Below, piece after piece: positions 44,060 to 62,497 of a DNA stretch of 64,000 nt. The translations under genes were made by a program, and so were the position numbers. The DNA is from a virus, in the IMG/VR virus record IMGVR_UViG_3300025122_000006. One strand, given 5' to 3'. The number at the start of each line of letters is the position of its first letter. The stretch's first letter is position 1. Below the pieces are notes generated by a model. The model was not told where the DNA came from. It was given only the letters and a program-made list of their open reading frames with translations, and did no database searches.

Positions 44060-44485
44060 TTAATTTCCTGCTAATTTTTTCCAATGTTTACGTGACCCAA
44101 AACTGGAAATATCAATCCCAGGATCACTAGGCGCCATGCCGTCAAGTGCGCTTGATCCATACGGAGAAGAGGGGGATCTTGGAGCCGACATAGGTGTGGT
44201 TCCTTCAAAAATATTTACACCATTGTAAGTGTCTTTTCCGATTGCATCAAGAATTTTTTTTCTATTTTCTTGGAGTTGATTTTGTTTTTTTTGTCTTCGT
44301 GTTTTCGCCTCTTCATCAGATTCAAGTGTAGGTTTTTGTTTTGTTTCATAAACCATTTGTTTCGTAGAAGTTCCTCTTATAACTTCAGAAATAATAGTTG
44401 AAAGAGTGCCTTCTTCAAAAATAACTTCTTTAATGCACTCTTTAATTAACGGTTTCAAAATTTTTTTTAATTCTTCTTTTTTCAT
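44060..44485 (-). CDS. Hypothetical head-module protein (MKKEELKKILKPLIKECIKE)
   Basis: GAGG RBS; between the protease region and bS21; leader-like start. Confidence 0.6.
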   Translation of the reverse strand: MKKEELKKILKPLIKECIKEVIFEEGTLSTIISEVIRGTSTKQMVYETKQKPTLESDEEAKTRRQKKQNQLQENRKKILDAIGKDTYNGVNIFEGTTPMSAPRSPSSPYGSSALDGMAPSDPGIDISSFGSRKHWKKLAGN

Positions 44486-44493
44486 TAGAACCT

Positions 44494-44796
44494 CTATTGT
44501 TTATATTGACTGTAGGAATGTCTTTCTGCTTGGAAGGCACCTTGGATTTTTGCAATCTCGACTTCTATTATAGAAATACTTTGACCAAGCCCAGATAGAT
44601 TAGACTCATCATCAGCTGAATACTCATGAGTCGTTTCACTGCCGGCGATTAGTTTGAGTTGTTCGGTTGCTTCTTTTAATTTATCAATTGCTTCTTGCGC
44701 CTTTGCTTGTTCCGATGCAACCTGTTCCTCTGGATAAAAATTTTCTTTTAATTCTTCCTTTATAATTTGAGTTAATCTTTTTTTACTGATCTTCAC
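44494..44796 (-). CDS. Leader-family protein (MKISKKRLTQIIKEEL)
   Basis: Shared N-terminal motif; GTG start just after the protease stop. Confidence 0.65.
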   Translation of the reverse strand: MKISKKRLTQIIKEELKENFYPEEQVASEQAKAQEAIDKLKEATEQLKLIAGSETTHEYSADDESNLSGLGQSISIIEVEIAKIQGAFQAERHSYSQYKQ

Positions 44797-44798
44797 AA

Positions 44799-45407
44799 TT
44801 AATCCCCCAAAATCTTTTTAAATAAATCATTGATACTATTCTCTTTAACCTCACGAAGGCGAGTCGTCATGGAACTTTGGCCACTTGGATAAACATATGC
44901 GTCTGGAGTCGAAGGCTCCGATACTATATCAAAGCAAATCAATTGAAAATCATTCTCAACAACAGTTTGTCCAGCGCTTTCTTTAACAGACCCCAAGCCT
45001 CTAGACGAAATACCAAGTTTAACTCCGGCATTAATAAGATCTTTAAGAATCCGGCCAGAAGGAGTATCGAGAACTTTGAGTTTACCCATCACATTTTTAC
45101 CTTCCCACCAAATATCAGTTGCAATGTGAGAAACATTTTTAAGATTAACAACAGAATCATCCGGGTGATCTAATTCTCCACACGCACGACTGTCTTTAAC
45201 AATCTTCATATAATTATCCATTTCTCTTTTAAGAACTTCATAGGGGTAAACACGACCATTCCCATTTTGTTTATCGGCGGTCTGAAGCTTTCCCGACAAA
45301 TAAAGAACGCCATTTTGCACTTCTCTTCTTTCTTTCTCGGACAGAAGATCTTGGCAAACACCGCCTTCACATAAGGCATAAAATTCTCGTAATAGTTTCT
45401 TTTTCAT
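44799..45407 (-). CDS. Prohead maturation protease (T4 gp21-like)
   Basis: NGNGRVYP, GELDHPD, VSH, LDTPSGRILK and GISSRGLGSV (catalytic Ser), plus FDIVSEPSTPDAY. Confidence 0.95.
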   Translation of the reverse strand: MKKKLLREFYALCEGGVCQDLLSEKERREVQNGVLYLSGKLQTADKQNGNGRVYPYEVLKREMDNYMKIVKDSRACGELDHPDDSVVNLKNVSHIATDIWWEGKNVMGKLKVLDTPSGRILKDLINAGVKLGISSRGLGSVKESAGQTVVENDFQLICFDIVSEPSTPDAYVYPSGQSSMTTRLREVKENSINDLFKKILGD

Positions 45408-45408
45408 T

Positions 45409-45636
45409 TTATCCTTTACATGCGTCCAATCTATTGTTAATCGTGTCTATAATCATCATCTTCATACCCGGATCGGTGGAACGATCATTTTGGATTTCGG
45501 CTTTGAGCCATTCTCCATCTTCGATTAATTCATCGCAGGAATAATCATAAATTTCATCAACGGTATAACTTTCTTTCAAAGTTTTACCAAGTTCTTCTTT
45601 AATAAGTTGAATTAATTTTCTTTTTGTAATTTTCAT
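45409..45636 (-). CDS. Leader-family protein (MKITKRKLIQLIKEEL)
   Basis: Shared N-terminal motif; GAGGA RBS. Confidence 0.65.
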   Translation of the reverse strand: MKITKRKLIQLIKEELGKTLKESYTVDEIYDYSCDELIEDGEWLKAEIQNDRSTDPGMKMMIIDTINNRLDACKG

Positions 45637-45680
45637 TTTCTTTCCTCAAATAAAAGACTTGCCGGCGCTACCGGCGCGAT

Positions 45681-45740
45681 TCACTTTCCGCTGCAGCAAC
45701 GGCGAACGGGCTGAAACATCCATCGTTTAATCGTCAACAT
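45681..45740 (-). CDS. Mini-ORF MLTIKRWMFQPVRRCCSGK* (19 aa; 35 aa, ending at 45633, if UGA is read through)
   Basis: Strong AGGAGGT RBS just before the ATG; the UGA is followed by a GC hairpin. Confidence 0.5.
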   Translation of the reverse strand: MLTIKRWMFQPVRRCCSGK

Positions 45741-46056
45741 AATCACCTCCTGATCTCGACGATACTCTCAAACCAAAGTCATCGACGATCATCGAGAGTA
45801 AATAAGTTGTCCCGCTTCCCAAACAAGATAGGCAGAACATATTCCCTAAAGAATATTCAAATGTAAATAGTTCTGTATAGTCATTTATACAAAATAAAAA
45901 CATCGATGCCCAAAAGCCCATGCACAATGTACAGTGAAAAAGCCAAGTCCATTTTTTGCTTGGATCTTTTTTTGGTCTTATATTACTGAAGATAGACCCA
46001 TAGACCAGAATAAAAGTAAGCCCATAAGCAGTCAAAATAAAATTTAATAAATTCAT
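45727..46056 (-). CDS. Membrane protein with a CxxCxGxW motif (DUF1360-like)
   Basis: Three hydrophobic segments; LFHCTLCMGFW; GAGGT RBS. Confidence 0.65.
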   Translation of the reverse strand: MNLLNFILTAYGLTFILVYGSIFSNIRPKKDPSKKWTWLFHCTLCMGFWASMFLFCINDYTELFTFEYSLGNMFCLSCLGSGTTYLLSMIVDDFGLRVSSRSGGDYVDD

Positions 46057-46100
46057 ATTACCTCATCTTAAACCATTTTTTGAACTCTTCAGGGGCTTCA

Positions 46101-46679
46101 CTAATAAGAATATCTACCATAAAGATAAGGAGCAAAAAGATTATGTTGATACATAGATCCTTTCTTTTCTTCGTGAGGAACTTCACCTAATTCGGTTGAA
46201 TATTCATTATCCGGATCAATTAGAGCATCGTCTTGAAGATCATCATAAGCGGTTGTGCCTGTAATATAAGGCTGCTCTGTCTCCATCCATTCAGAAATTT
46301 TTAATAGAGTGACCTTCACAGGATCGTGTGTAGCGGAGTTCATTATTAGACCTTCAAGAGAACCATATACATTTCCTCCTTTAATAGAATCATGATTAAT
46401 AACCCCTTGGCTCCTTAAATACTCAAGGAGTCTAGATTCTGCACCGTATACAGCATCTGACATTACCTCTTTGGCAAATGTAATAATTTTTTTGGATGTT
46501 GGTTGTACCACAATATCAATATCTTTATGATCTAAAATCATTAGATCACCGTTTAAAGCATTGCGGAGATTTAAATTGAATTCAATTCTATCTTTCTCAA
46601 CAATTTCAATTGTTATACTTCGTTCTTCTGGTGTTGGTTCGACTATTTCTTCTGGTTCAATATTAATTTTGACTGCCAT
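46101..46679 (-). CDS. Hypothetical head-module protein
   Basis: Start MAVKINI at 46679 behind GGAGGT; acidic. Confidence 0.6.
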   Translation of the reverse strand: MAVKINIEPEEIVEPTPEERSITIEIVEKDRIEFNLNLRNALNGDLMILDHKDIDIVVQPTSKKIITFAKEVMSDAVYGAESRLLEYLRSQGVINHDSIKGGNVYGSLEGLIMNSATHDPVKVTLLKISEWMETEQPYITGTTAYDDLQDDALIDPDNEYSTELGEVPHEEKKGSMYQHNLFAPYLYGRYSY

Positions 46680-47484: not shown

Positions 47485-47504
47485 GCTTCTTTCCTTTTCA
47501 TTTT

Positions 47505-47936
47505 TTAATAATCGTAATAGCCACGGCCGCCTTCATCTGGGGCTTCGAAAGCGTCATCCATATCCTCAACTTCTTCGGCAATTTCTTTTGAAAGTTCTTC
47601 GCTTATTCCAACCGTGGTTCCAGGAGGAACCTTGACTTGGCGCATTTTGCCGCCATCGTCTTTCCCGAAGATGCCCTCAAGTTTTAAATCATATCCGGAA
47701 TAGTCTCCTTGCAAAAGATCCATTATATCCAGATCATCAATCATTCCCGTACACTCAATATCAATTGTGTTTCCGGTGTTTAATGTAATCTCAATTGACA
47801 AACATCTACATTCGTCCACCATATCTGGATACTCTACCGTTGCTGATACGGCTTGCAACTGTCCCCCGTCTTCATTAAGGACGCCTTGCATTTCTTCCTT
47901 GATAATTTGTTTTAACTGTTTATTCGTTAATTTCAT
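47505..47936 (-). CDS. Leader-family protein (MKLTNKQLKQIIKEEM), acidic
   Basis: Shared motif; ACTATTTA at 47991-47998, inside the 3' end of the portal gene. Confidence 0.65.
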   Translation of the reverse strand: MKLTNKQLKQIIKEEMQGVLNEDGGQLQAVSATVEYPDMVDECRCLSIEITLNTGNTIDIECTGMIDDLDIMDLLQGDYSGYDLKLEGIFGKDDGGKMRQVKVPPGTTVGISEELSKEIAEEVEDMDDAFEAPDEGGRGYYDY

Positions 47937-49833
47937 TTTCTTCATCCTTCCGCAGTGATTCTATCAATGATTTAATTTCAAAATCAGTACTAAATAGTCT
48001 ATGTTCTTCTAAAATATCAGGGTTTTGTGCTTCCGTCACTCCACGAGAAAGAGAAGCGAGGCCGTCAGCGCCAGTATACCCTGGAAAAGTTTTACGAAAA
48101 GTAAGTGGTTCCGAGAAGGCAGCATTAATCATCTGCTTTCTTCTCCCGCCTTTTCTGTGTATTTTAGTAGAATCTTTTTTATAGGGGCCTCGAGGTTTTC
48201 CTTTCGCCTCTGGTCGCCTGAACACGGTGTCATCACGCTTTGCCGGCGGTTCAGCTAATAAAACTTCTTCTTCTTCCTCGGCTGGTTCTTCTCCGCCTAA
48301 ATCTAATTCTTCTCCGCCTAAATCTAATTCTCCTTCGCCACCAAGACCTAGGTCTCCGCCGGGTCCGCCTCCTGCCTCGGGAAGTTCTCCGGCTTGTTCA
48401 ACTGCAGCCATAAATTTGGCGTCCGAATACATTTCTCTTTGCATTCGAATAAATTCATCCTCAGAAAGTCCTAGAAGATTTTCTGCAACCCAACGTCGCG
48501 AGAAATAACCATCCGTAGCAGCTGCCGCAATGTCAAATTTAGTTTTCCAATGCTCAAGCTCTTGCATCTCCGCAATTTTACTAGGGTTATTGAGAGAAAG
48601 CTTGAAGCCAAGCAAATCATCTCCGCGATAACCCATAGTATAAAGATGGATAATACCAATCTTTTCGAGTTCAGATATAATAACTCTTTGAAGTCGCTGA
48701 ATAGTTCTTGCAAAACGAATATCTTTTTGGGCTAATGTGGTTTTGTCTTCTGTTGCACCTTCCCCCATTGTAAGATAAGATTGGGGTACTTTAAGAGCAG
48801 AAAACAATTTATCTCGAAGATACTTTACATCATCAATTTGGCCTGTGAAAGTTCCTCCGGCAAGGTTGGTGATGTCCGTTGCCGAAGCCCCTCCTCGAAT
48901 TGGGATAAAATAATCTTCTTCAATAGAAAGAGGGTTATAACGTAAATCAACGCGACCAGATGACGGATCAACCACTTGATGCCGCTTCATTTGAGTCATT
49001 ATTTTTTGCATATATTGCTCAACATCTTGCGGCGCAATTCCACCGACATCGATCTTGAAGACACGGCGCTCGGGCGAACGAGTAATCCGATAAGCCATCA
49101 TGGCATCTTCCAAAAGATTAAGTTGCCTCCAAATGCGTCTGGCTGGCTCTAGAGCGCTGGTACCATATGGAGCATGCTTATCATTACCTAAAACTCTAAA
49201 ATGTGCTATTTGCCAATTCTCGAGCGTTAAACCACCATTGTTCCATTGATACTGAATATAATTGGGATTTGATGGGTCTTCTCCTTCTAAGCGTTCAATT
49301 TCTTGAGCAGGAAGACCAATACAGTTTCTAATCCCCAATCCTTCGTCAATGTCTAGATATACAAACAAATCTCCATATTTACACATTGTTCTAGCCCAAC
49401 CAAAAAGATTATGCTCAATGTTCATAACATTATAATAAAGAGAATGTAATATATATTTAATTTCGTCATTGGGGCATTTAATATGCAACATTGGAGTTAA
49501 ACTTGAATGAGTTGTCATTTCATCTGCATAGATATCTAATGAAGATGCAATTTCCGGCGTATACTCCATCTGATCAAAATCAATATATCGCTCTGCACGA
49601 TTTCTATTTGAAATCATATTGAGCGAAGTTACATTCATGGGGTTGTATTCAGACTTTTTGAACTGCTTTCCGCTAGCTGATTTAAACCTTTTAGCGTAGA
49701 TATCTAAATGTCTTCTTCTTAATTGCCGACCCGATTGTGTTCTTCTCTGGGTAAGTGGTCCGGAAAAAAGCCTTGTTAAAGACTTAAACAGGTCAGATTG
49801 GTTATTATTTGGGTTTCTATCATTACGAGCCAT
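47920..49833 (-). CDS. Portal protein (T4 gp20-like) with an acidic/Gly-rich C-terminal extension
   Basis: PEIASSLDIYADE, LLEDAMMAYRITRSPERRVFKIDVG, EEDYFIPIRG and DVKYLRDKLFSALKVP; 21-bp tandem repeat (ELDLGGE) at about 48289-48330. Confidence 0.96.
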   Translation of the reverse strand: MARNDRNPNNNQSDLFKSLTRLFSGPLTQRRTQSGRQLRRRHLDIYAKRFKSASGKQFKKSEYNPMNVTSLNMISNRNRAERYIDFDQMEYTPEIASSLDIYADEMTTHSSLTPMLHIKCPNDEIKYILHSLYYNVMNIEHNLFGWARTMCKYGDLFVYLDIDEGLGIRNCIGLPAQEIERLEGEDPSNPNYIQYQWNNGGLTLENWQIAHFRVLGNDKHAPYGTSALEPARRIWRQLNLLEDAMMAYRITRSPERRVFKIDVGGIAPQDVEQYMQKIMTQMKRHQVVDPSSGRVDLRYNPLSIEEDYFIPIRGGASATDITNLAGGTFTGQIDDVKYLRDKLFSALKVPQSYLTMGEGATEDKTTLAQKDIRFARTIQRLQRVIISELEKIGIIHLYTMGYRGDDLLGFKLSLNNPSKIAEMQELEHWKTKFDIAAAATDGYFSRRWVAENLLGLSEDEFIRMQREMYSDAKFMAAVEQAGELPEAGGGPGGDLGLGGEGELDLGGEELDLGGEEPAEEEEEVLLAEPPAKRDDTVFRRPEAKGKPRGPYKKDSTKIHRKGGRRKQMINAAFSEPLTFRKTFPGYTGADGLASLSRGVTEAQNPDILEEHRLFSTDFEIKSLIESLRKDEENEINE

Positions 49834-49836
49834 TTT

Positions 49837-51420
49837 TTATCCTTTATAAATCCAAAAAAATTCTTTTGTTTTGTTTATTTCTTCTTCATGTTTTTCATGA
49901 AAAGTTTGTTTATAACCTTCTTGTCCTTTTATTTGTGTATTCATAGTTGTGGTTGTCTTCATTAAGCCATTAAGCATTGCTTTTTTGTATTCCATATCTC
50001 TTTGGTTCTCTGATAATGCAGTATCTCTTACCCAGCAGGCAATTGCTAAAGATATAACTAGATCATCATTATAAGAACGCATTGCTTGAGGCTTCCCATT
50101 GTACCATATAAAAGTTTTCATTTCATGAAACAAACGATTAGAATGTACAGTAATTAGTTTATTTCTAATGTACTCCTCTAGTTTTGCTACAATTAAAGGC
50201 CTTGTTTTAGTGGAAGTTGTAAACCCTGGTACAGATCTATCATTATCCTCTGCCAAATAAGCCTCAACATATTCGTGGGTTGACTTAATTGAATAATATA
50301 ATTTTGGATATTCCAAAGTAATTAATTTTTCTAATATAGAAATGCCAATCCCATTATTTTCGACAACCAACAAACAGTTGCCGTATTCTCTGCCTGCATC
50401 ATAAAGAATATTTGAATAAAGATCAAGGTTTGGTTTTCCTTGATATTCAGCAACAACTGCCATTGTGTCTAGTCTTATTACATGAAAAACAGAATAATCT
50501 GTACCATCGCCACGAGCAACATCGGCTACCAAAAGATATGGAAGACCTTCTTGATATTTTTCCCATATCCATAAATTTCTGTCATATCCAGTTTTATAGT
50601 GGGGGTCTTTAACATTTTCAAATAACCACTGCATATCGTCCGGGTGGATAACAGTTTCGCCTGAAGTATTGAAATTACATTCTAATTCCTGGGCGATCTG
50701 TCTTCGAGACATATTTTTGGTTTCTTTTGCAAACCAATCCTGATCTCTTTCAGGATGCATATCCCAAGGTAAAACAATTGGATGAAAATCGTTCTCTTCT
50801 GACTCTGCATCAATGTAAGTCTTGTGGAACCAATTACCTACCCCTTTAGGGGTCGATAAGGCTATGCAGCGGCCTCCTGTTGACAAAGTAGGGTAAAGAC
50901 CCGTCCACAACTCTTCAAGGCCTTCTACGTGTGCTGCCTCGTCTATAACGAGCAGTGATAAGGCTTCCGATCTACCGGCATCTCCAGAAGTCGTTCCTGC
51001 TTTGATCTGTGACCCGTTTGATAATTCGAATGAAGTTTTATTATCCGTTACGATCTTTGAAATTTTAATCCATTCGGGTAAATGCTTCATAATTGATTTT
51101 ACTTTTCTCACCAAGTTAGCTGCTGTTCCAAACTTAGTGGCAATTACAAGAATGTTCTTGTCTCTATGAAAAAGCATAAACCAGACAATGTATCCCGCTG
51201 AGATTGTGGAGATACCCAATTGTCTGGCTTTAAGTATAATATTGAAACGATAATCATTAAAGTCTTTTAAAAGATCTTTTTGATAATTGTAGGTTTTAAA
51301 CGGAATCAAGCCCCGCAGAGGATGTGAAATTCTACAATAGTTATCGATAAAGAATTGTGGATCCTTACCGCATTTCACAATCTCTTTTACAATTTCTTGT
51401 TTGGAGAGTTTAAAGGCCAT
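49837..51420 (-). CDS. Terminase large subunit (gp17-like)
   Basis: KARQLGIST (Walker A), LLVIDEAAH (Walker B), STPKG, QELECNF, VADVARGDGTDYS and DDLVISLAIA. Confidence 0.95.
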   Translation of the reverse strand: MAFKLSKQEIVKEIVKCGKDPQFFIDNYCRISHPLRGLIPFKTYNYQKDLLKDFNDYRFNIILKARQLGISTISAGYIVWFMLFHRDKNILVIATKFGTAANLVRKVKSIMKHLPEWIKISKIVTDNKTSFELSNGSQIKAGTTSGDAGRSEALSLLVIDEAAHVEGLEELWTGLYPTLSTGGRCIALSTPKGVGNWFHKTYIDAESEENDFHPIVLPWDMHPERDQDWFAKETKNMSRRQIAQELECNFNTSGETVIHPDDMQWLFENVKDPHYKTGYDRNLWIWEKYQEGLPYLLVADVARGDGTDYSVFHVIRLDTMAVVAEYQGKPNLDLYSNILYDAGREYGNCLLVVENNGIGISILEKLITLEYPKLYYSIKSTHEYVEAYLAEDNDRSVPGFTTSTKTRPLIVAKLEEYIRNKLITVHSNRLFHEMKTFIWYNGKPQAMRSYNDDLVISLAIACWVRDTALSENQRDMEYKKAMLNGLMKTTTTMNTQIKGQEGYKQTFHEKHEEEINKTKEFFWIYKG

Positions 51421-51429
51421 TGGATTCTT

Positions 51430-51525
51430 TTATTTTTTCTTTTTAGGGGTGGGCTTTGTTCCCTTCATAACATTTTCCAATTCTTCTTTTACTATTCTTT
51501 TGAGCTGTTCTTTTGTAAGTTTCAT
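51430..51525 (-). CDS. 31-aa leader-only peptide MKLTKEQLKRIVKEELENVMKGTKPTPKKKK, absent from the ORF track
   Basis: ATGA overlap with the upstream stop; fills the gap before the terminase; near-consensus leader motif. Confidence 0.7.
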   Translation of the reverse strand: MKLTKEQLKRIVKEELENVMKGTKPTPKKKK

Positions 51526-52076: not shown

Positions 52077-52088
52077 ATTATAATTTCC

Positions 52089-52709
52089 TTATCTTCTGTC
52101 TCTGGCCAGGCTTTTCTGTATCCTAGCGCTGTGTCCTGGGGTGGCTTTCCCGGGGGCATCGTGCTCTGGCTTCCACCCTGATGCTCTCAAGGCCTTTGTA
52201 TGTGCCTGTTGCTGTTTTTTCAGTTTTGCCGCTGCTTTCTTTTTCTCTTTCGCCTCACCGGCATCCACTATGCCTCCCACGGCTACATCCAATAGAAAAG
52301 CGACTGCAACAGGAGCAAGAAATCCAATAGCGGCCGTTCCTAAAGTTGCAAGCGATGTGCCCATAACTACTGCTGTTTTTGCTAACAATACTTTACCAGC
52401 GGCTGAGGCTAAAAACGCCGTCATCGATGGATATCCAGCGACTAGAATAGAAGAGACGGCTAACGGTACATTGAGTGCGTCCACATCTTCCTCATTTTTT
52501 TGTACTTGAATATCGGTTTGTGCCACTATTTTTTTCACCTTGGGATCTCTTGAAAGAGCTAAAAAGATTTTATCCAAATTTGGATTATCTTTCATTTCCA
52601 CTGCTGCTTTCATAATTTTATCTTCTTGCCCGGTGGTGGTAGCCTCTTGCACTACGCTTTCGAGTTCTTCTTTAATAAGACATTTAAGCTGTTCTTTTGT
52701 TAATTTCAT
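52089..52709 (-). CDS. Leader-family protein (MKLTKEQLKCLIKEEL) with a long hydrophobic hairpin
   Basis: Start moved to ATG 52709 (ATGA overlap); Ala/Val/Leu-rich putative membrane helices; basic tail. Confidence 0.65.
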   Translation of the reverse strand: MKLTKEQLKCLIKEELESVVQEATTTGQEDKIMKAAVEMKDNPNLDKIFLALSRDPKVKKIVAQTDIQVQKNEEDVDALNVPLAVSSILVAGYPSMTAFLASAAGKVLLAKTAVVMGTSLATLGTAAIGFLAPVAVAFLLDVAVGGIVDAGEAKEKKKAAAKLKKQQQAHTKALRASGWKPEHDAPGKATPGHSARIQKSLARDRR

Positions 52710-53901: not shown

Positions 53902-53910
53902 TACAGTCTC

Positions 53911-54372
53911 CTAAAGCCCACCGTCTGAATCATCAGAAGGCGCTTGTCGTATTGGAATCAAAATAATCATTTTACGATCATAAGACATATACCAGAAATC
54001 ATCAGTCTGGAAGCCTCTGCCTTCTTTCCACCGTCTCTCTTTCAGAAAACCTACAATCTCATCTGCAACATCCAGAGGATAGTCAAGCTGTATCCATTCA
54101 CCCATTTGAGAAAATCTTAAAGGTTGTGGCATCTTTGTCGCTTGCATAAACAAATCCAAACCAAGTCGATTGAGTTTTTCGTTGCCTGGGGTTTTCAATA
54201 GAGCCTCGGCCATTTCAGGTGTTGGTTTTTCTTCCATCATGTCCAAGAGTTCAATCGCTTGATTAATATAGTTTTCGTCTCCTGATTGAAACATCGCAAG
54301 TAAATTATCCCTTTCTTCCTGCTCGAGAGCCTCGGTAATAAGTTTGGAGAGCTTTTGTTTTGTGAGTTTCAT
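53911..54372 (-). CDS. Leader-family protein (MKLTKQKLSKLITEAL)
   Basis: Shared motif; TAATG coupling. Confidence 0.65.
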   Translation of the reverse strand: MKLTKQKLSKLITEALEQEERDNLLAMFQSGDENYINQAIELLDMMEEKPTPEMAEALLKTPGNEKLNRLGLDLFMQATKMPQPLRFSQMGEWIQLDYPLDVADEIVGFLKERRWKEGRGFQTDDFWYMSYDRKMIILIPIRQAPSDDSDGGL

Positions 54373-55034
54373 TACGCGCCCTTTAAAATAGGCGATCCTG
54401 GAGGTAGAACGAAATAGATACCTGCAGCGGCAAATGCACCTCTATCAAATGGTACTTGAACACCGTCGACGTCCATGCCGCCCGGGTACAAAGTAACAAG
54501 ACTCAAAACAGTTCTACCGTCTTCAAGAGAACCAATATTGGAAGTTACTAATGTGACTTCATCTGTTTCTTTCCTTTCACCGGGGGCAACTTTTACAACC
54601 TCTCCTCGGCCTCCGGGCATTTTATAATCTTGCAAACCAGCAACTTCTTGTGGAGTCCCAGCAGCCAGCCCCATTTTGCCAACTGGACCGGAAGGAGAAC
54701 TGATGCCTTCCCACTTAACCATGCCTCCGCCTGTTGAAGTTGGTTGTGTATTCATTATGGCTAAAATCAATTCTTTAACATTAACATTTGGATAAATTAA
54801 AGATCCGGGAGCGTTAGCGTCTTGATGACGATCTTTAATATGGCTCATTCCTTCTTCACTAGCATACAGAAGGACTTTGTCGCTAATTGGTATTAAGTCT
54901 CCTTCATTAACTTGTGTGCCTTTAAGCCACTGATTTCCATCAACCATGGCTTGAACTTGTCCTAAAGCACCTTGTTCATTTTCATACATTGCTTCTTTGA
55001 TTAATTTATATAGTTTTTGTTTTGTAAGCCTCAT
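54372..55034 (-). CDS. Leader-family protein (MRLTKQKLYKLIKEAM) with a possible nuclease-toxin domain
   Basis: Shared motif; GMSHIKDRH...LVTLYPG. Confidence 0.6.
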   Translation of the reverse strand: MRLTKQKLYKLIKEAMYENEQGALGQVQAMVDGNQWLKGTQVNEGDLIPISDKVLLYASEEGMSHIKDRHQDANAPGSLIYPNVNVKELILAIMNTQPTSTGGGMVKWEGISSPSGPVGKMGLAAGTPQEVAGLQDYKMPGGRGEVVKVAPGERKETDEVTLVTSNIGSLEDGRTVLSLVTLYPGGMDVDGVQVPFDRGAFAAAGIYFVLPPGSPILKGA

Positions 55035-55445
55035 TTATTTGTCTCCTGGGGTCATTATTATAATACCGAACTCCTCGGCAAGGATGCGATCAATCTTTTC
55101 GGGGTCTTCTTTATTGGCCTCAACTAACAGACGAACGCGTTCTGCTTTTAATAGTTCCGCATGATTCATGGATTCGTTAGCCGTTTTATTAGCAATTTCC
55201 AAAGCGCGAATGTACTTGCTATTGGCTGCTTTTTGCAGCTTGCCTTTCTTGTTTGCTGCGGCTTCAACGGCTTCAATTTCTTTCTGGTATAGCTCGTTTG
55301 CCATTTGTAATTGGGTCTTATAGGCTTTGACTTTGCCTCGCCCAACTACATAGGAAATAATAAGAAGTGCTGCCACCACCAGCATTCGCCAGTGATGGAA
55401 GCACCATAACTTTATCTTTTTCCACGCGAGTTTCATTATCCCCAC
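55035..55445 (-). CDS. N-terminally anchored coiled-coil membrane protein (i-spanin-like candidate)
   Basis: TM segment MLVVAALLIISYVVG followed by a long helix. Confidence 0.5.
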   Translation of the reverse strand: MGIMKLAWKKIKLWCFHHWRMLVVAALLIISYVVGRGKVKAYKTQLQMANELYQKEIEAVEAAANKKGKLQKAANSKYIRALEIANKTANESMNHAELLKAERVRLLVEANKEDPEKIDRILAEEFGIIIMTPGDK

Positions 55446-55957
55446 TCTTCAATTACATAATCTACAAGAGGGCCGAGTACCTTTTCTTCTACGTCAAAGT
55501 ATTCCTCCAGAATATCAATTATATCTGATCGCTCTGTTCCCGCAGCTCGTTCATGCTTTATCATTTCGATCTCGTCGTCATAATAAAATTTATCATCATC
55601 AGTCAATTCATACAAATTCTCCGGACTGTCCGGCGCATCTATCCTCGCATCTTCAATTTGACTGATTAAACTATTCAGGGGATGCACATATTGATCAAAC
55701 CAATCGGGTGTATACACCCCCGCGGGGCCTTGTTTATATTCTCTTTGGAGTTCATCGCGCTCTTGCTTAACAATCTCTAAAGCAGCGGACAATTGTTCAT
55801 GTCCCCAGTAGGCCCACATATCTGAACTAACTGCTCTCAATTCTTGTTGAATTTGAAAAGCAGATAGTCCTCCTAGAGGAGTCAGGGCTTCTAAAAGAGT
55901 TGCTTTCTCTATCTCTTCTTGAATAACTTGTTTAAGCTGCTGCTTAGTAAGTTTCAC
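55436..55957 (-). CDS. Leader-family protein (MKLTKQQLKQVIQEEI), acidic
   Basis: Shared motif; GTG start with a GGAGG RBS. Confidence 0.65.
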   Translation of the reverse strand: MKLTKQQLKQVIQEEIEKATLLEALTPLGGLSAFQIQQELRAVSSDMWAYWGHEQLSAALEIVKQERDELQREYKQGPAGVYTPDWFDQYVHPLNSLISQIEDARIDAPDSPENLYELTDDDKFYYDDEIEMIKHERAAGTERSDIIDILEEYFDVEEKVLGPLVDYVIEEWG

Positions 55958-55960
55958 AAT

Positions 55961-56203
55961 TTACCCTCCGTGCTTCCAAGATTTCGCAAAATCAATAACA
56001 GATTGACCGCCGATGTAACACACTGCAATCATTCCCCAGATGTCCGGATCGAGACTTGCCCAGAGCATAAGACCTGTCGCTGTGAGAAACACAAGTAACT
56101 TACGACTTACAACTTTTTCTTGCAAGGAATCGAGCATCCCTTTGTCTTTATTCTTGAGATACAATTCATTTTGTATCATTACTTTACTTTCTTCTTTATC
56201 CAT
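55961..56203 (-). CDS. Small two-TM protein, holin candidate
   Basis: Start MDKEESK at 56203 (AAGGAG RBS); SRKLLVFLTATGLMLW...WGMIAVCYIGGQSVID resembles small phage holins. Confidence 0.6.
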   Translation of the reverse strand: MDKEESKVMIQNELYLKNKDKGMLDSLQEKVVSRKLLVFLTATGLMLWASLDPDIWGMIAVCYIGGQSVIDFAKSWKHGG

Positions 56204-56454
56204 TACAATTCTCCTTCTAGTTTTCGGATTAGCCAAAAATACTTTTTCCTTTCTCTCGGCGTAAGATCCTTACCCGACACTACCTTTTGATGAAGTTTTT
56301 CTTTTTCTTCGAGCGCTGTCTCGTGCGCAGTTTTTCTCGGCGTGGGCTCGGTATGACCACCGACAGATCCAGCAACGGGCCCCATTGATAGCTCTTCAAG
56401 AGATTCAAGTTCTTCCTTAATGATTTGCTTCAGTTGTTCTTTTGTTAATTTCAT
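56203..56454 (-). CDS. Leader-family protein (MKLTKEQLKQIIKEEL)
   Basis: Consensus leader; TAATG overlap with the Mre11-Rad50 stop. Confidence 0.65.
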   Translation of the reverse strand: MKLTKEQLKQIIKEELESLEELSMGPVAGSVGGHTEPTPRKTAHETALEEKEKLHQKVVSGKDLTPRERKKYFWLIRKLEGEL

Positions 56455-59400
56455 TAGATTTTTACCTTTGCAAAGCCATCTGCTTTTTGAATGTCGATTG
56501 TCTTGTCGACAATATCCTTTAAAGATTCGAGATGGGAAATTAAGAGAACCGTTTTAAATTGGCTTTTAATCATTTGAAGAAGACGAATAAAGCCTTCCAT
56601 ATGATCTTGATCCAATGCTGTTGCTGGTTCGTCAAGAATAAATAGTTCCGATTTTGGTAAATTGGTTACTGAAATCAAAGCAAGGCGGATAGCCATTGAT
56701 GCAATTGTCTTCTCCGCACCAGATCCCATCGACAATGGTCTAGGATCATACTTCGGATGTTTAATATATATTTCTAATTTATTATCAACATTATCAAAGA
56801 AAACTTCAAAGTCCACAATAGTATTAAGCACAGAAGATATCTCTTTGTTAATAATAGGGAGCATTGATTTAATGACCTGATAAGATACGCCATTGGCATG
56901 CATAGCTTGAATATATAAATCATAAGCGATAAATTCTTTTTCAGCGTCATCAATTTGTTTAATATGTTCTTTTGCTTCTTCAATTAAGCGCCGGGTGGAA
57001 CCCTCCTCAGACATGAGAATCATAATCTTCTTGTTACACTTTTCAAGCTCTTCTTGCTTCTTACTCACCGTTAATTTGATTGCCCGAAGGTCTCTTTGTA
57101 AGGATTCCAGATTATCATATGCTTCTTGGTTTTTATAATAGTGCTCAATCTTCGCAAGGGTTTCTTCGATCTCCTTTCCCGTGAGAGCCTTCTTGCTCTC
57201 GTGTGCCTCATTTTGAGCGCGTATTTTTTGTATCTTTGCTTCATTTGTCTTGCTCTTTGTTAATTTATTTTTATAGTCCTCGATTGCATTCTTTACGGAC
57301 TTTATGTCAATCTTGCCAAGGAGTTCGTTATTTAGAAAAATCTCATCATTAACCTCTTCAAGTTTCTCTTGAGACTTTATGATTTCTTTCTTTGCTTTGT
57401 GCGCTTCTTTTACGAACTGGTTATCACAGCAGAATTCACAATTAGGATCGTATTCGTGATCATGAAGCAAATCAATCTTCGCTTGGTAATTGGCAATCTT
57501 TGAGGCTAAATCCCTCTGTCTTATTTTTAATCTACGACCAAGATCGGTCAAGGATTTATGCTGCTCTTGTTGGCCGGTGTACTCATCGAGATTAAAATTA
57601 TCGATAAAGCCTTTTAAACGCTCTTTTAAGGCCACCAAGCCCTTTACATAACTGTCGCCACTCTCAATCGCTTTAGAGATATCCCGCTGGACTTCACGCT
57701 TCTCTTCAAGCATATCAAGAAGAATGCGAATATCTACTGGTTCAGCCCCAATTGATCTTAGCTGTTCTTCTATTATCTTTTGTTCTTCTAGAAGATCCTT
57801 GGTTCTCGCTGCGTGTTTTTCACAAAGGTCAGATTGGTTGGCTATGTCTTCTAAAATTTCAGAAAGAGCTTCTTGATTCCATTTTAGCTTTTTGCGCCAA
57901 TCAACAGAGTTTAAGTGTTTAATCACGCCTTTCTTTTCGGCCGAATCTTTCTTCGCAAGTTTATGTTTTTCCTCAAACATCTTAAGGTCAAGAAACTTCG
58001 CAAGAATTTCTTTGCGCTTTGTTGAGCCTTCATTAATAAAACCAAACGCATCCATCTGGGAAGCCATAGAAGTGATCATAAAGTCATTATAGTTCCCAAA
58101 TGTTTTGCGAATAATTTCGTCTGTTGCATTGCGAGTCATGCCGTTTTTACTTTCGGGATGAATACCCAAAGCATATTTGGTAAAGTCCAACTCTGTCTTT
58201 ACCTCTTTGGTTTCTTTGCCTTTTAATTTTTTCTGATATGTTTCGAGGTTCCTCGTGATCTTGTAGGTATCATCACCGACTCCGATCTCGAGTTGACACT
58301 TAGCCTTTTCGCGATTTTGATTGACGATATGGACATTTTTTCTCTCTCCTTTTGACGTAGTGTTAAACAGCCCAAATAAAGCGGCATCGATGATACTTGA
58401 CTTGCCTGAATAATTTTTGCCGAAAATTCCAACAAGACCATTTAACTTGTCAAAATCAATTTCATTACTTTCGCCGTAGTTAAATAGATTGCTCCATTTC
58501 ATTTTCTTAAGTTTCCAAACAATATTTCTAGAAACATCATCGGTATTTTTAATTTGTCTAGAATATTCGCGGTTGAGTTCTAAAATTCTTTCCAAAATAT
58601 CATCGGTTATTTCTTTATCAGATAAGAACGCTTTGATATATTTTTCTTGAGTATTTTGATCACGCATGTTAATCGCTTTACCATCTTGATGTACAATAGA
58701 CGAATTGGAGTATCCTGCTCGATTAACAAGGTTAATTGAATAAGGACTCCACTTAGCATTAGCATAATCACATGCCCTTCGTAGTTTTATTAAAGGCAAG
58801 TTATAATTTGAAACCAGACGAAGACGGGAATTTTTTGGCACTTTAACTTTTGGTAAAGTACCATTTTGATTGATTTCCACCGTATAAAATGGTCGAGGAG
58901 ACATAAATAATCTTTTTTCAACATTGAAATTTTCTTTATCTCGGATGTCCCACAAGAGGTAACCTTTTCTAAGAGACTCTCCAAAATTCTGCTGAACAGT
59001 GGAACCCGCATACCAGACTCGACCATCTACATCTAACTTTTGCGTCTTATGAATATCACCAAGCATAGCAAAATCGAAATCACGGAATATATCAACATCG
59101 TCCTCACCATTATCAAGACTCCACTCTTCATTAATTTCACATCCCATAATAGCACCATGATAAAGCGCAATATTTACCCTAGATTTATCAGAAGGAGAGA
59201 CCCAGTTGTCTCTATCAAACACAGAGAGGACATTAAGGCAGATAGAATTGTCCAACTGGGTCTCTCCAGAATTTTTTAATAAATTTAAATTGGGATGTTG
59301 TAATGCTTCAATAATCGGTGATATTGCATCCTGCCTATTACCATTCTTAAGATTACCATCATGATTTCCTAAAATAATGAATGTTGGGGCGATATCCGCA

Positions 59401-59603
59401 AGATTTTTAAGAAAATCAGCGCACAACTCAAAGTATTCCGGAGAGAGTTGTGTCTTTGTATGAGCTATATCTCCGGTATGGATAATATAATCTGGCTTAT
59501 CATTCTCAAGGCTCTCATATATATCTTTAAAAACTTTCTTGTATTCATCATGATATTTCACGTTACGAATATGTGTGTCTGAAATGTGTGCAAAAGTAGT
59601 CAT
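56454..59603 (-). CDS. Fused Mre11-Rad50 (SbcD-SbcC; gp47-gp46-like) nuclease-ATPase
   Basis: N-terminal metallophosphoesterase motifs SDTH, GDIAH, GNHD and GDIH; then Walker A GKNYSGKSS, coiled coil with a CEFC hook, signature SGAEK, Walker B ILDEP and ISH. Confidence 0.93.
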   Translation of the reverse strand: MTTFAHISDTHIRNVKYHDEYKKVFKDIYESLENDKPDYIIHTGDIAHTKTQLSPEYFELCADFLKNLADIAPTFIILGNHDGNLKNGNRQDAISPIIEALQHPNLNLLKNSGETQLDNSICLNVLSVFDRDNWVSPSDKSRVNIALYHGAIMGCEINEEWSLDNGEDDVDIFRDFDFAMLGDIHKTQKLDVDGRVWYAGSTVQQNFGESLRKGYLLWDIRDKENFNVEKRLFMSPRPFYTVEINQNGTLPKVKVPKNSRLRLVSNYNLPLIKLRRACDYANAKWSPYSINLVNRAGYSNSSIVHQDGKAINMRDQNTQEKYIKAFLSDKEITDDILERILELNREYSRQIKNTDDVSRNIVWKLKKMKWSNLFNYGESNEIDFDKLNGLVGIFGKNYSGKSSIIDAALFGLFNTTSKGERKNVHIVNQNREKAKCQLEIGVGDDTYKITRNLETYQKKLKGKETKEVKTELDFTKYALGIHPESKNGMTRNATDEIIRKTFGNYNDFMITSMASQMDAFGFINEGSTKRKEILAKFLDLKMFEEKHKLAKKDSAEKKGVIKHLNSVDWRKKLKWNQEALSEILEDIANQSDLCEKHAARTKDLLEEQKIIEEQLRSIGAEPVDIRILLDMLEEKREVQRDISKAIESGDSYVKGLVALKERLKGFIDNFNLDEYTGQQEQHKSLTDLGRRLKIRQRDLASKIANYQAKIDLLHDHEYDPNCEFCCDNQFVKEAHKAKKEIIKSQEKLEEVNDEIFLNNELLGKIDIKSVKNAIEDYKNKLTKSKTNEAKIQKIRAQNEAHESKKALTGKEIEETLAKIEHYYKNQEAYDNLESLQRDLRAIKLTVSKKQEELEKCNKKIMILMSEEGSTRRLIEEAKEHIKQIDDAEKEFIAYDLYIQAMHANGVSYQVIKSMLPIINKEISSVLNTIVDFEVFFDNVDNKLEIYIKHPKYDPRPLSMGSGAEKTIASMAIRLALISVTNLPKSELFILDEPATALDQDHMEGFIRLLQMIKSQFKTVLLISHLESLKDIVDKTIDIQKADGFAKVKI

Positions 59604-59630
59604 TTGTCCTCCGTATTACTTTCTTATTAT

Positions 59631-59659
59631 AGGATAACCCATATCGCGTAAGTTGTCAA
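59631..59659 (-). promoter_or_regulatory. Sigma70-type promoter
   Basis: TTGACA-17 nt-TATCCT, followed by a GGAGGACAA RBS. Confidence 0.65.
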
Positions 59660-59694
59660 GTATAAAACTTAGTGTTTCCATTTTTTCTTCGAAG

Positions 59695-59778
59695 TAGGGT
59701 CGGAGGGACTTGAACCCTCACGCTCATGCGAGCAACGGATTTTAAGTCCGTTGTGTCTACCAATTCCACCACGACCCC
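59695..59778 (-). tRNA. tRNA-Leu (anticodon UAA); CCA not encoded
   Basis: GGGGTCGTGGTGGAATTGGTAGACACAACGGAC-TTAAAA-TCCGTTGCTCGCATGAGCGTGAGGGTTCAAGTCCCTCCGACCCTA forms a full cloverleaf with a long variable arm, discriminator A and a G1:U72 pair. Confidence 0.95.
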
Positions 59779-59779
59779 C

Positions 59780-60715
59780 TTAAATATTTTTTAATTGTTT
59801 TTCGAGGAAATACATATCGTTATCAATCTCTTCCGCCATATTTAATTTTTCTAAAAACACTGATCGTGTCATAGAACCAACATCTTCATAATACTCAAGG
59901 TTTATTTTTTTAACCTCAAGGTCGTATTTCATCATGGATCTGATAATCCAATGTGCTTTCTTTTCTGCATCTGAATCTAGGGCAACATATACCGGTGTAT
60001 CATGAATCGCCAAAGCCTGAAATAGTTTTGAGTCTTCTCTAAGGGTCGAGCCAAGAATGGGAATAACATTGTCGCCAACAACGATGGCATCAAAAATACC
60101 CTCAACAATAATCACGGGCTCATCCCAATCAATCATCAGTTCATTAAAAACAATGTCGCGACCACAGGGTGGATTAAGATACCTACGATTATGCCCCACA
60201 TATGAACGAGCAATAAAATAATTACAATCTCCGTCGTTGTCAATAGATGGGATGATAATTCTTCCTGCATAGTGTCCTTCCTTACAATATCCTATTTTCC
60301 ATTTTAAAATCTCAGATTTACTTATTCCTCTTTTCCTAAGATAGTCCAGCGGAGCCTGAGAACGCAATGGCAGATGTTTGTTGCACAAAGAAATAAACTC
60401 TTGTGGTAATTCAATTTTTTGTTTTATTTCAATATCACCTAGTTCTTTAAAGATATCTTCGAACTCTGTGAGGTCTAAACGACCTTGCAATTCAAGATAC
60501 TTTTGTCTTTGTTGGTAATCCCCAAACTTTCTTACAAGTCGGTAAATATTCTTTCCTCGTGCATCACACACCCAACATTTAAAAGAGTTAATCGAAAAGT
60601 TGACCGACATCTTCTTCTTGTGGTGTTTGCAATACGGGCACGAATATAGGTATTCATCGCCAGAACGACGATATGAACCGAGGATGTCGGTTATTATCTT
60701 TCGTTTATCATTCAT
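59780..60715 (-). CDS. dnaG: DNA primase (Zn-finger + TOPRIM)
   Basis: CPYC...FKCWVC, YLRKRGI, RIIIP, RYLNP, IVEGIFDA and ALDSDA. Confidence 0.9.
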   Translation of the reverse strand: MNDKRKIITDILGSYRRSGDEYLYSCPYCKHHKKKMSVNFSINSFKCWVCDARGKNIYRLVRKFGDYQQRQKYLELQGRLDLTEFEDIFKELGDIEIKQKIELPQEFISLCNKHLPLRSQAPLDYLRKRGISKSEILKWKIGYCKEGHYAGRIIIPSIDNDGDCNYFIARSYVGHNRRYLNPPCGRDIVFNELMIDWDEPVIIVEGIFDAIVVGDNVIPILGSTLREDSKLFQALAIHDTPVYVALDSDAEKKAHWIIRSMMKYDLEVKKINLEYYEDVGSMTRSVFLEKLNMAEEIDNDMYFLEKQLKNI

Positions 60716-60732
60716 GTTGTCCTCTCATGTAT

Positions 60733-60760
60733 AATATAACATGTTGAGACGATTTGTCAA
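60733..60760 (-). promoter_or_regulatory. Sigma70-type promoter for primase
   Basis: TTGACA-16 nt-TATATT. Confidence 0.7.
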
Positions 60761-60773
60761 GTGTTTTCTAAAA

Positions 60774-61661
60774 TTAAACTTCAACTCCGAAGACACTTTC
60801 GACAAGAGGAGGGATTTCTTGTGAGGTTACATAACCATCTCTTCCTGCATGTTCGGGTTGCAAGAGGATGTATCGGGACTTGCCTTCTGTCCACGCAGGG
60901 TGCTTCTCTGATCGGGTTCCCCATAAATCTTCTTGGAGCCCAGACACTATCGTTAGACTTAGTTTCTCTCTGCTGTATTCAGGCGCTAAGTTCTTTATTT
61001 GCAATTTAAACTCTTGCAGAACCCAGGAAGATTCTTTTCCCTTATAAAAACTAAACCAGATGTCCACTGCGGGATAGTCTTTATCTCCCACAAATCTCCT
61101 TCGGGAAATGCTACCATTTCGTACCCCTAAGGTATCCTCATGTATGTATAGCTCCCATCGATTTGGGACACCAAAATCCATACCAAATGTTTGCGTTGCC
61201 ATGCTTAGAATCTCTTGTCTAAAGTTTACAACCTCTCCGACAGTCAATCGCCCAGTATATCCGATATCTTCATTGCCGACAGGAATTTCTGCTTTTTGGA
61301 GTTCTTTCATCATGTCATCAGTGAAAAGAGGACGGGAAGGATAAACCTGAACGCTGTCCATGTCCCAATTAATAATATCAAGTGGTTCGTATAATTGTTC
61401 CTCGGGAAATAAAACTTCTAATGCTCCCCGCGGGGATCCTCCTTTATAAAGGGCGTTCGCCAAAACATATTTTATCTGATTTTGTTGTTCCTCTGACAAA
61501 TCGTCAATCAGAGATTGGTAGAGATCGAGAGCCATTTCAGGAGCGCTTTCAGCAACATTTATGAGGTTGTCGATCTCTTCTTGATCTATGGAAAAAGATT
61601 CTTCTTCATCTTCCAATGCTTCAAGGATTAGTGCTTTTAATGCTATTTCTGTTAACTTCAT
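60774..61661 (-). CDS. Leader-family protein (MKLTEIALKALILEAL), acidic
   Basis: Shared motif; ACTAATTA at 61680-61687. Confidence 0.65.
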   Translation of the reverse strand: MKLTEIALKALILEALEDEEESFSIDQEEIDNLINVAESAPEMALDLYQSLIDDLSEEQQNQIKYVLANALYKGGSPRGALEVLFPEEQLYEPLDIINWDMDSVQVYPSRPLFTDDMMKELQKAEIPVGNEDIGYTGRLTVGEVVNFRQEILSMATQTFGMDFGVPNRWELYIHEDTLGVRNGSISRRRFVGDKDYPAVDIWFSFYKGKESSWVLQEFKLQIKNLAPEYSREKLSLTIVSGLQEDLWGTRSEKHPAWTEGKSRYILLQPEHAGRDGYVTSQEIPPLVESVFGVEV

Positions 61662-61678
61662 AGGAGATCCTCACCCTA

Positions 61679-62227
61679 CTAATTAGTGAAGATTTTCCTT
61701 ATTTGTTCTTCTTTTACGTGGCTTGGAATGAATCTTTCTATAGATTTGTGCTGGGACAAAGCCTCTCGGAACTCTGTTGCAGAAATAAACTCTTCTTGTT
61801 CGTAGAGCGAAGGTACTTGAATGATCTTCGAAGTTACTTCTCGAAAGTGACTTACAAAGCCTGCCTGGTATCCTTCATCTTTGGATGAAACGCCTAAACA
61901 AATCTTGTTTTCGCTTTCTTCATAGTTTTCCTCAGCCCAATCATACACATCTGCGAAAGGGTTCGTATAAGCGCCTCTAGCGCCCTTTCTAGGCTTCGCA
62001 CGTTGATAGACGACCTTGGGGTGCTTGAGGATGCCATAGGCCTCTAGAACGGCTTCTGCTTGCTCTAGAGAGACTTCAAAGTCTTGTCCCGCTTCGCGAA
62101 GCCTATCTCCGCAAAAAACCCTCACCTCAGATACGTGTGGGTTGGTGATGTAGTGCATAAAGAATTTGTAATGCCCTACGTGAGGCGGTTTGAATCCGCC
62201 GGGTATTAATACGGTTAGCTTGGTCAT
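61679..62227 (-). CDS. HxGH-family nucleotidyl/cytidylyltransferase-like protein
   Basis: PGGFKPPHVGH and ISATEFRE; start ATG 62227 behind GGAGGACAC. Confidence 0.8.
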   Translation of the reverse strand: MTKLTVLIPGGFKPPHVGHYKFFMHYITNPHVSEVRVFCGDRLREAGQDFEVSLEQAEAVLEAYGILKHPKVVYQRAKPRKGARGAYTNPFADVYDWAEENYEESENKICLGVSSKDEGYQAGFVSHFREVTSKIIQVPSLYEQEEFISATEFREALSQHKSIERFIPSHVKEEQIRKIFTN

Positions 62228-62254
62228 TGTGTCCTCCAATGTTCATAATAAGAT

Positions 62255-62283
62255 ATTATAACGTGTTAAGAACGATTTGTCAA
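62255..62283 (-). promoter_or_regulatory. Consensus sigma70 promoter
   Basis: TTGACA-17 nt-TATAAT. Confidence 0.85.
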
Positions 62284-62287
62284 GTTT

Positions 62288-62497
62288 TTATTTAGGTGCT
62301 ACCACAGAACCATCTGGCATTTCGTGTGTCCCTGCTGCAGTTCTCGCTTGGATTTCAATAATAGCCATCATGTGTTCTGAGTCCATTCCAGCCTCGAGTG
62401 CTTGGTGTACGGCCGCGGTGAATGCTTCTCCGGGCTCCTGAATTGAATCCAACTCTTCTTTAATAATTCGTTTTAGTTGTTCTGTTGTAATTTTCAT
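62288..62497 (-). CDS. Leader-family protein (MKITTEQLKRIIKEEL)
   Basis: Shared motif; GGAGG RBS in the 3' end of the upstream gene. Confidence 0.65.
   Translation of the reverse strand: MKITTEQLKRIIKEELDSIQEPGEAFTAAVHQALEAGMDSEHMMAIIEIQARTAAGTHEMPDGSVVAPK

Follow-up and report, generated by a model that had tools for sequence, protein, structure and literature searches.

A stretch of 64,000 nucleotides (nt) of uncultured marine T4-like phage DNA, IMG/VR record IMGVR_UViG_3300025122_000006 (hereafter the window, meaning the whole stretch), carries nearly all of its genes on the minus strand. Eleven of its open reading frames (ORFs), all of them on that strand, share at their N-terminus the sequence MK[LI]TKxQLKxIIKEEL, here called leader A, after which their sequences diverge completely. 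A preliminary description of this DNA had read the leader as a modular address label that loads a variable set of effectors into the prohead, and we examined the eleven genes together with their relatives in other phages. The genes are listed below with the lengths of the whole proteins in amino acids (aa).

44494..44796 (-): 100 aa, GTG start, acidic body; directly downstream of the prohead protease gene
45409..45636 (-): 75 aa, acidic; directly upstream of the prohead protease gene
47505..47936 (-): 143 aa, acidic; in the slot between the portal gene and a conserved 273-aa gene
51430..51525 (-): mini-gene of 31 aa, leader plus Lys-rich tail; in the slot just upstream of the large terminase (TerL) gene
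52089..52709 (-): 206 aa, with long hydrophobic membrane-type segments and a basic tail
53911..54372 (-): 153 aa, acidic; start overlapping the stop of the leader gene before it
54372..55034 (-): 220 aa, with a conserved family body (HIKDRH...KWEG); confidently predicted fold with a weak likeness to BECR-type RNase toxins
55436..55957 (-): 173 aa, GTG start, very acidic
56203..56454 (-): 83 aa; its ATG overlaps the stop of a Mre11-Rad50 fusion gene (TAATG)
60774..61661 (-): 295 aa, variant of leader A; own late-type motif CTAATTA 25 nt upstream, flanked by two genes with early promoters
62288..62497 (-): 69 aa; downstream of a 283-aa gene bearing the late-type motif

All eleven starts proved to be real, as the preliminary description had claimed. 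The start codon is ATG in nine genes and GTG in two (44796 and 55957), and a Shine-Dalgarno-like run lies upstream of each. The lengths needed correction, in that the bodies had been put at 15 to about 280 aa and we found total protein lengths of 31-295 aa. The leader genes had also been described as interleaved singly with other genes, which does not hold for 55034 and 54372, since these two adjoin. A position matrix built from the 11 leaders gave 35-51 bits for those 11 and at most 10 bits for everything else in the six frames of the window; the scores are circular for the 11 source leaders, and the matrix is informative only on the absence of further copies in the window. A degenerate leader DNA pattern, with up to three mismatches allowed, matched the window seven times and 100 dinucleotide-preserving shuffles not once. 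By chance, no copy of leader A is expected in the window.

The sequence [I/V]-x-E was found at residues 12-14 in 11 of the 11 leaders, which bears out the statement that every leader ends in (I/V)xE. The leader had further been called amphipathic, and this is weakly true: a helix is predicted by AlphaFold2 in two of the proteins, and the hydrophobic moment of the helix is not above that of shuffles of the same residues. Beyond residue 16, the 11 window proteins are unrelated in length, charge and sequence. Each window body remained a singleton in an all-vs-all BLASTP comparison of 256 leader-protein bodies, in agreement with the complete divergence first reported, and searches of Pfam and PHROG with the 11 window bodies gave no credible match.

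Spread of the leader and a second, exchangeable leader

By the leader DNA pattern, more than 120 IMG/VR stretches were matched, in which at least 257 leader ORFs were found, with a median length of 110 aa and often several in tandem. Homologues of window core genes were present in 98 of the 120 listed loci, with TerL up to 88% and the portal protein up to 76% identical. Judged by these homologies, leader A is a mark of one clade of uncultured marine T4-like phages of about 180 kb. CheckV size estimates for clade fragments were ~180-310 kb, and two fragments (G007 and G006) are tied to the clade via their Mre11-Rad50 gene. The phage in the window is a distant T4-like myovirus; its nearest cultured relatives by TerL are Flavobacterium phage immuto (49%) and Microcystis phage Mel-JY01 (45%), and a megablast of window positions 44-64 kb against cultured phages gave no match.

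Scanning related phages with a leader profile, a check that the preliminary description had suggested, returned 12 copies in a complete relative (G005), one in immuto and at most a doubtful one in Mel-JY01. The complete relative has 186,398 bp and terminal repeats; one of its 12 leader-A genes lies directly after the protease gene, three lie at 121-123 kb and eight stand in tandem at 141.7-144 kb. The single leader-type protein of immuto has 252 aa (record positions 113144-113902) and starts MKKSQLRQIIKEAL; immuto also encodes a 73-aa protein upstream of its protease gene, with a 360-aa gene lying between the two.

A second suggested check, whether the bodies vary under a conserved leader, was made by all-vs-all BLASTP of the 256 bodies; among the matches listed, these fell into 212 clusters, of which 190 are singletons. 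In the 107 bodies scanned, Pfam gave single cases only of GNAT, ParB-like nuclease, FliG_C, DUF6745 and PutA_N. Some bodies are mosaics in which modules of 20-40 residues reappear in varying order. Examples are, among others, L052:1905-2414, L046:2475-2762, L024:2687-3139 and L089:7546-7980, and the modules include D..LL.AI..L.D.I.GLD.SID.L, SEKQRRWACAQKDKP...AEEMC and a KKRYGDDAESVMYATATKIAK tail. Lys-rich C-terminal tails showed no enrichment in leader proteins (10% vs 8%, p = 0.24), and the idea that they serve as DNA-binding tails was dropped. A tblastn search with 25 aa of the leader gave no hit, probably owing to the low-complexity filter. A word-based homologue search on the leader region returned unnamed metagenome proteins only, a full-library HMMER search with the 295-aa body returned four relatives only, and the ESM Atlas gave no lead. 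As a literal string, the motif is absent from the literature searched.

A second N-terminal tag, leader B (MKLL[LM]ENWRK[YF]LNE; MKLLLENWRKYLNE), replaces leader A on the same body family. It is found in the window on the following gene:

283..1080 (-): leader-B gene (MKLIMENWRGFVNE), 265 aa

In the family of the 55034 body, 13 homologues with 42-91% identity have leader A, a degenerate form of it or a VKLILESWKRFLNEEV N-terminus in the same place. Leader B heads 42 further ORFs in the retrieved DNA and about 16 genes of G005, most of which form one tandem array at 112-120 kb (L126:12091-19765, L128:4515-8121). In both leaders, residues 12-14 read [I/L]-x-Glu, and Glu and a hydrophobic residue come next. 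Known domains are commoner in leader-B bodies, where we found NUDIX, guanylate-kinase/zeta-type kinase, GNAT, nucleotidyltransferase and PGDYG domains. In a few database proteins and loci, two leader-body units are fused in one frame, as seen at the protein level, and in two related fusion cases the inner leader lacks its Met and is still conserved. By their exchange on the 55034 body family, the leaders are modular and exchangeable. Two adjacent genes of immuto (L132:4930-6230) have another N-terminal motif in common, M(A/E)(D)NF.L..FL.ENKLT.N...LKE, and because these two genes share a different motif, shared N-terminal tags may be common in the wider phage group.

For one cargo candidate, the 220-aa protein encoded at 54372-55034, a confident AlphaFold2 model was obtained (predicted local distance difference test, pLDDT, 88.7). 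With this model, Foldseek found nothing at E <= 0.001 (best E 0.026). In a wide search with VIA-align, YxiD, MafB2-CT, two CdiA-CT and BrnT were among the seven best matches, with 76-103 residues aligned at Z 4.5-5.5, which is below the level for trusting a shared fold; colicin D and RelE followed at about Z 3. The family of this body has the conserved motif HIKDRH. The likeness to BECR-type RNase toxins consists in the fact that the top VIA-align matches of the predicted model are mostly such toxins, a weak hint that the body may have an RNase-toxin-like fold. The difference is that no immunity gene was identified for this body.

Head-assembly genes, promoters and neighbouring genes

According to the preliminary description, a gp21 homologue is encoded in the window, and we could locate it in the protease gene at 44799-45407, which matches PHROG 207 (E 3e-60) and PF03420 (113 bits, cut-off 27). 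This gene and the other genes needed for what follows are:

44799..45407 (-): prohead protease, gp21 type (Peptidase_S77); 37% identity to T2 gp21
33701..35578 (-): major capsid protein (MCP), gp23 type; predicted maturation site ELLRE59/A60 (the slash marks the cut)
35603..36829 (-): putative scaffold, by its position directly upstream of the MCP and its acidic composition
44060..44485 (-): conserved head-module protein, 141 aa, with the related N-terminus MKKxELKKxLKPLIKECIKEV; homologues in 17 loci and in G005, always near the protease
47920..49833 (-): portal protein, gp20 type; at most 42% identity to any cultured phage
49837..51420 (-): large terminase, TerL
56454-59603 (-): Mre11-Rad50 fusion gene, 1049 aa; Metallophos at residues 3-153, then AAA_23/SMC_N (Rad50/SbcC-like)

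Residue 61 of the window MCP aligns to residue 16 of mature T4 gp23*. Just before residue 61, the clade has ELL[RK]E/[AS], immuto and Mel-JY01 have [IV]SE/A, and T2 has FLTE/A. Because the clade MCPs conserve ELL[RK]E/[AS] at the aligned site, it is very probable that the clade protease, like that of T4, cuts after the Glu of hydrophobic-x-Glu; a site of this kind is present in both leaders.

The N-terminus of the putative scaffold, M..LEQAIID..AL[RK]EAA, is conserved in the clade and leader-like. In three phages, the leader resembles the first helix of the phage's own scaffold or putative scaffold, which was assigned in the window and in immuto by position only: LEQAII in the scaffold stands against LKQII in the leader in the window, and LLKQAIAEA against QLRQIIKEA in immuto. 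There is a parallel in T2, where gp22 starts MLKEQLIAE and ipIV starts MKTYQEFITE. By BLASTP, no similarity was found between the putative scaffold and T2 gp22, or between the 141-aa protein and T2 gp68. The 141-aa protein is the weaker leader match noted at 44485; it is not variable cargo and belongs to a conserved head-module family with a related N-terminus.

The listed leader loci contain TerL 54 times, the portal gene 47 times and the protease gene 24 times, where about seven are expected at random. TerL, portal, Mre11-Rad50 and protease genes occur in these loci 4-8 times as often as with random placement in a 180-kb genome, and no excess was seen for the MCP (6) or a sheath-like protein (4). 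In 15 of ~20 loci, a leader gene adjoins the protease gene, and the slot of gene 44494-44796 also holds a leader gene in G005 and five other loci. Two further slots, TerS-like/TerL and portal/273-aa gene, hold different leader cassettes in different relatives. Upstream of TerL, for instance, a 34-aa counterpart of the mini-gene is present in one locus (L053), and leader genes of 169 aa and 184 aa are present in two others (L071 and L045, respectively).

Early-type promoters in the window have the form CTTGACAA...TATAAT. A different motif, CTA[AT]TTA, is present 24-41 nt upstream of window structural genes. In G005, this motif is strand-specific, with 58 copies on the coding strand vs 20, and of these 58, 25 are located 10-50 nt ahead of a start, a zone that makes up 4.6% of positions (~9-fold enrichment). 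Judged by strand and position, CTA[AT]TTA is probably the late promoter of the clade, unlike the TATAAATA of T4. It precedes leader gene 61661, which lies between two early-promoter genes, as well as the pair 63353-62497, and in G005 it stands ahead of each of the two leader arrays. The copies in the window are upstream of 63353, 43809, 36829, 33666, 32364, 32016, 29378, 26458, 24072, 61661 and 4923.

Among the other genes in the window are a primase and a RuvC-like resolvase. The Mre11-Rad50 fusion, the T4 counterpart of which is two genes, 47 and 46, is kept in relatives as full-length matches without internal stops. A 71-aa homologue of ribosomal protein bS21 is encoded within the head module (43843-44058 (-), PF01165 37 bits), and in Mel-JY01 an S21 gene is annotated at the corresponding position. 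Between the head-core genes and the putative scaffold lies an ORF of 1759 aa (36974-42253 (-)), the sole family match of which is a tiny AbrB_C hit; in relatives, residues 1-126 alone are kept.

A candidate capsid-targeting propeptide and its alternatives

We consider the chances about even that the leader is a T4-style capsid-targeting propeptide on a large, changeable set of cargo proteins. Residues 17-22 show a weaker motif, E17-x-[VLI]-[LM]-x-E22, followed by a stretch rich in Gly, Asp, Glu and Ser; residues past 16 played no part in selecting the leader set. In the AlphaFold2 model of the 220-aa protein, the leader forms a helix at residues 1-20 with pLDDT 63, vs about 92 for the body. 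The model of the 295-aa protein (pLDDT 65), which was too weak for a structure search, likewise has a helix at the leader, with a break after residue 17.

In such a mechanism, residues 1-16 with the weaker extension to residue 22 would be the propeptide. The leader would form a short helix and in this way co-assemble with the prohead scaffolding core, after which the gp21-type protease would cut it off after Glu14 or Glu22; the variable body would remain in the head and exit with the DNA. Leader B, with its [I/L]-x-Glu at residues 12-14, would do the same job as leader A. We infer the targeting, cleavage, packaging and ejection of the tagged proteins alike, and cleavage at Glu14 specifically seems to us less probable than a head-address propeptide as such, that is, on the lower side of even. 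The modular address label of the preliminary description is partly supported. It is favoured by the N-terminal position, the length of 14-22 residues, the [I/L/V]-x-Glu, the S77 protease, the hypervariable bodies, the exchangeable leader, the clustering near portal, protease and terminase genes and the late-type motifs ahead of several leader genes and arrays, and it is disfavoured by the Glu after the putative cut (position P1'), the early promoters and the membrane cargo.

The points that weigh against a head address are of several kinds. With regard to cleavage, residue 15, directly after Glu14, is Glu in 96% of leaders; the residue after the Glu is Ala, Ser or Thr at the T2 sites and at those inferred for MCP and scaffold. 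The second L-x-E, at residues 20-22, is weakly conserved. With regard to expression, the late motif stands at its usual distance in only 1-2 of the 11 window leader genes, the Mre11-Rad50 gene, the stop of which overlaps gene 56454, has an early sigma70-type promoter, and the leader-B gene at 1080 is preceded by an early-type promoter of its own. The timing evidence for leader genes is mixed. As to the cargo, the leader bodies are acidic, with 18% Asp+Glu vs 13% in other ORFs, and T4 internal proteins are basic. The body of gene 52709 is of membrane type, and the NUDIX, guanylate-kinase/zeta-type kinase and nucleotidyltransferase bodies under leader B could equally be ordinary cytoplasmic enzymes. 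The ~28 leader-A or leader-B genes among the 228 ORFs of G005 (~12%), one of which encodes 922 aa, would also make a large load for one head.

Further points of this kind concern the distribution of the leader. With the leader profile, T2 gave no hit at E <= 1 anywhere in its genome, and the TerL of two relatives starts MKLTK (MKLTK(N/Q)EIV in L071:2608-4185 (-) and L045:1458-3035 (-); the window TerL begins MAFKLSKQEIV), a possible remnant of recombination with the leader cassette just upstream. The clade is known from uncultured DNA alone, and in the literature searched no virion proteome was found for its relatives, the metaproteomics literature giving general papers only. Because the Glu at P1', the early-promoter contexts, the membrane cargo, the enzymes and the ~28 tagged genes fit poorly, we treat capsid targeting as the leading hypothesis and no more. 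A wider version, in which two interchangeable tags load a large and fast-changing arsenal, encoded by a tenth of the genes, into the prohead to be injected with the DNA, strikes us as possible but doubtful. Toxin-like RNase, GNAT, kinase, NUDIX and nucleotidyltransferase modules would belong to such an arsenal, and much of the accessory 'dark matter' of the phage would then be effectors that are made beforehand and injected, not genes expressed early.

The leader might instead be a docking helix for some other shared partner outside the capsid interior, by which accessory proteins are recruited or their removal is timed. Such a partner might be a hub of the phage or the host, for example a chaperone, a complex for replication or nucleotide metabolism, or an AAA+ unfoldase or protease by which N-terminal motifs are read. 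This would agree with the strict N-terminal position of the leader and its selection as a peptide (see below), with the early-promoter contexts of some tagged genes, with the NUDIX, kinase and nucleotidyltransferase enzymes among leader-B bodies and with the tagging of ~12% of the genes of a complete genome. Leader B also appears to fit the published N-terminal motif for ClpX (Met-basic-three hydrophobic-five residues-hydrophobic), and we counted this on the same side. However, a docking helix leaves unexplained the enrichment around portal, protease and terminase genes, the [I/L]-x-Glu that two otherwise different leaders have in common at residues 12-14, the likeness to the scaffold N-terminus and the late-type motifs at the heads of arrays. 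No candidate partner was found, and overall we regard this explanation as unlikely.

The same leader could also be conserved for an action in the DNA or mRNA, either as a 5' homology block for cassette recombination or as a translation-start context, with the peptide being incidental. Leader cassettes do occupy different slots across relatives, and between TerL and primase there are eight leader genes in the window and none in G005. Exact runs of 17-21 nt are shared by some leader pairs, and the two TerL proteins that begin MKLTK look as if recombined with a leader. However, selection appears to act at the peptide level because the invariant Leu8 uses five codons. Pairs with the same residue share the codon in only 52%, and the longest exact DNA run between leader pairs has a median of 8 nt and a maximum of 21 nt. 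The leader peptide is nearly unchanged between phages with MCPs that are 44% identical, and Trp and Phe are conserved in leader B. In six-frame translations, among the matches listed, a start codon lies under 270 of 272 strong leader matches, and 265 are no more than 60 aa from the upstream stop. Judged by codon usage and position, the leader is selected as a peptide and not as DNA. We rate an element in the nucleic acid as very improbable, and recombination at the leader may be a side effect.

It is barely conceivable that a modifying enzyme such as a radical-SAM maturase recognizes the leader, in the style of ribosomally synthesized and post-translationally modified peptides (RiPPs): one leader on many unrelated bodies is a RiPP-type pattern and G005 encodes one radical-SAM enzyme, but its gene at 80.5 kb is far from the leader arrays at 112-123 and 141-148 kb, no radical-SAM gene was found in two other relatives (partial genomes), no enzyme gene accompanies the window leader genes, and the bodies are folded proteins of 30-900 aa, not short peptides.

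If the leader is indeed a head address, hundreds of orphan genes of abundant ocean phages would gain one role, as proteins delivered with the DNA, and the list of leader proteins would be a catalogue of candidate factors for first-minute host takeover and anti-defence. The T4 trick of one tag for many cargoes would then be general and greatly scalable. The 16-residue tag could also be put to the test as a means of bringing foreign proteins into phage heads. Should the tag have some other role, it would mark a shared partner for a tenth of the phage's genes, which would be worth finding.

Comparison with known systems

A short terminal helix with a flexible linker addresses unrelated cargo to a shell in bacterial microcompartments (encapsulation peptides) and in encapsulins (cargo-loading peptides). 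No protease is known to remove these peptides, and neither the shells nor the organisms are related to the phage system. The likeness to the marine leader lies in the working principle and is an analogy only.

In the giant phages phiKZ and SPN3US, propeptide-bearing ejection and head proteins are reported to be processed by the prohead protease (PMC5694885, PMC7411985). The likeness would be that many different head-loaded proteins are trimmed after Glu by the maturation protease. A difference is that these phages belong to another lineage. They are not known to use a single short tag common to all the proteins; their propeptides are long, with a cleavage motif of the S/A/G-x-E type.

In T-even phages, Mullaney and Black are said to have described in 1996 a capsid-targeting sequence (CTS) of IPI, IPII, IPIII, ipIV and Alt that is removed by gp21. 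The propeptides of the T4 internal proteins are N-terminal, comprise 10-19 residues, target the prohead core and are cut by gp21, and the first ten residues of IPIII are enough to package foreign proteins (PMC9026906). The internal proteins of T-even phages are diverse, with the CTS alone being conserved (PMC3012670). The marine system, known here from its sequence alone, differs from this in having two interchangeable leaders, Glu after the putative cut site and mostly acidic bodies. Its family is also far larger, with at least 11 members per window, ~28 in G005 when leader B is included, and hundreds of bodies clade-wide. The marine leader is without sequence homology to the CTS, and the kinship would be one of kind and not of demonstrable descent. 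In kind, however, the two agree in several respects: both would be short N-terminal propeptides, of 10-19 residues in T4 and 14-22 in the marine leader, that end in [I/L]-x-Glu and head unrelated, fast-changing proteins with genes in variable regions, and in both cases a gp21-family protease and a T4-type head module are encoded in the same phage.

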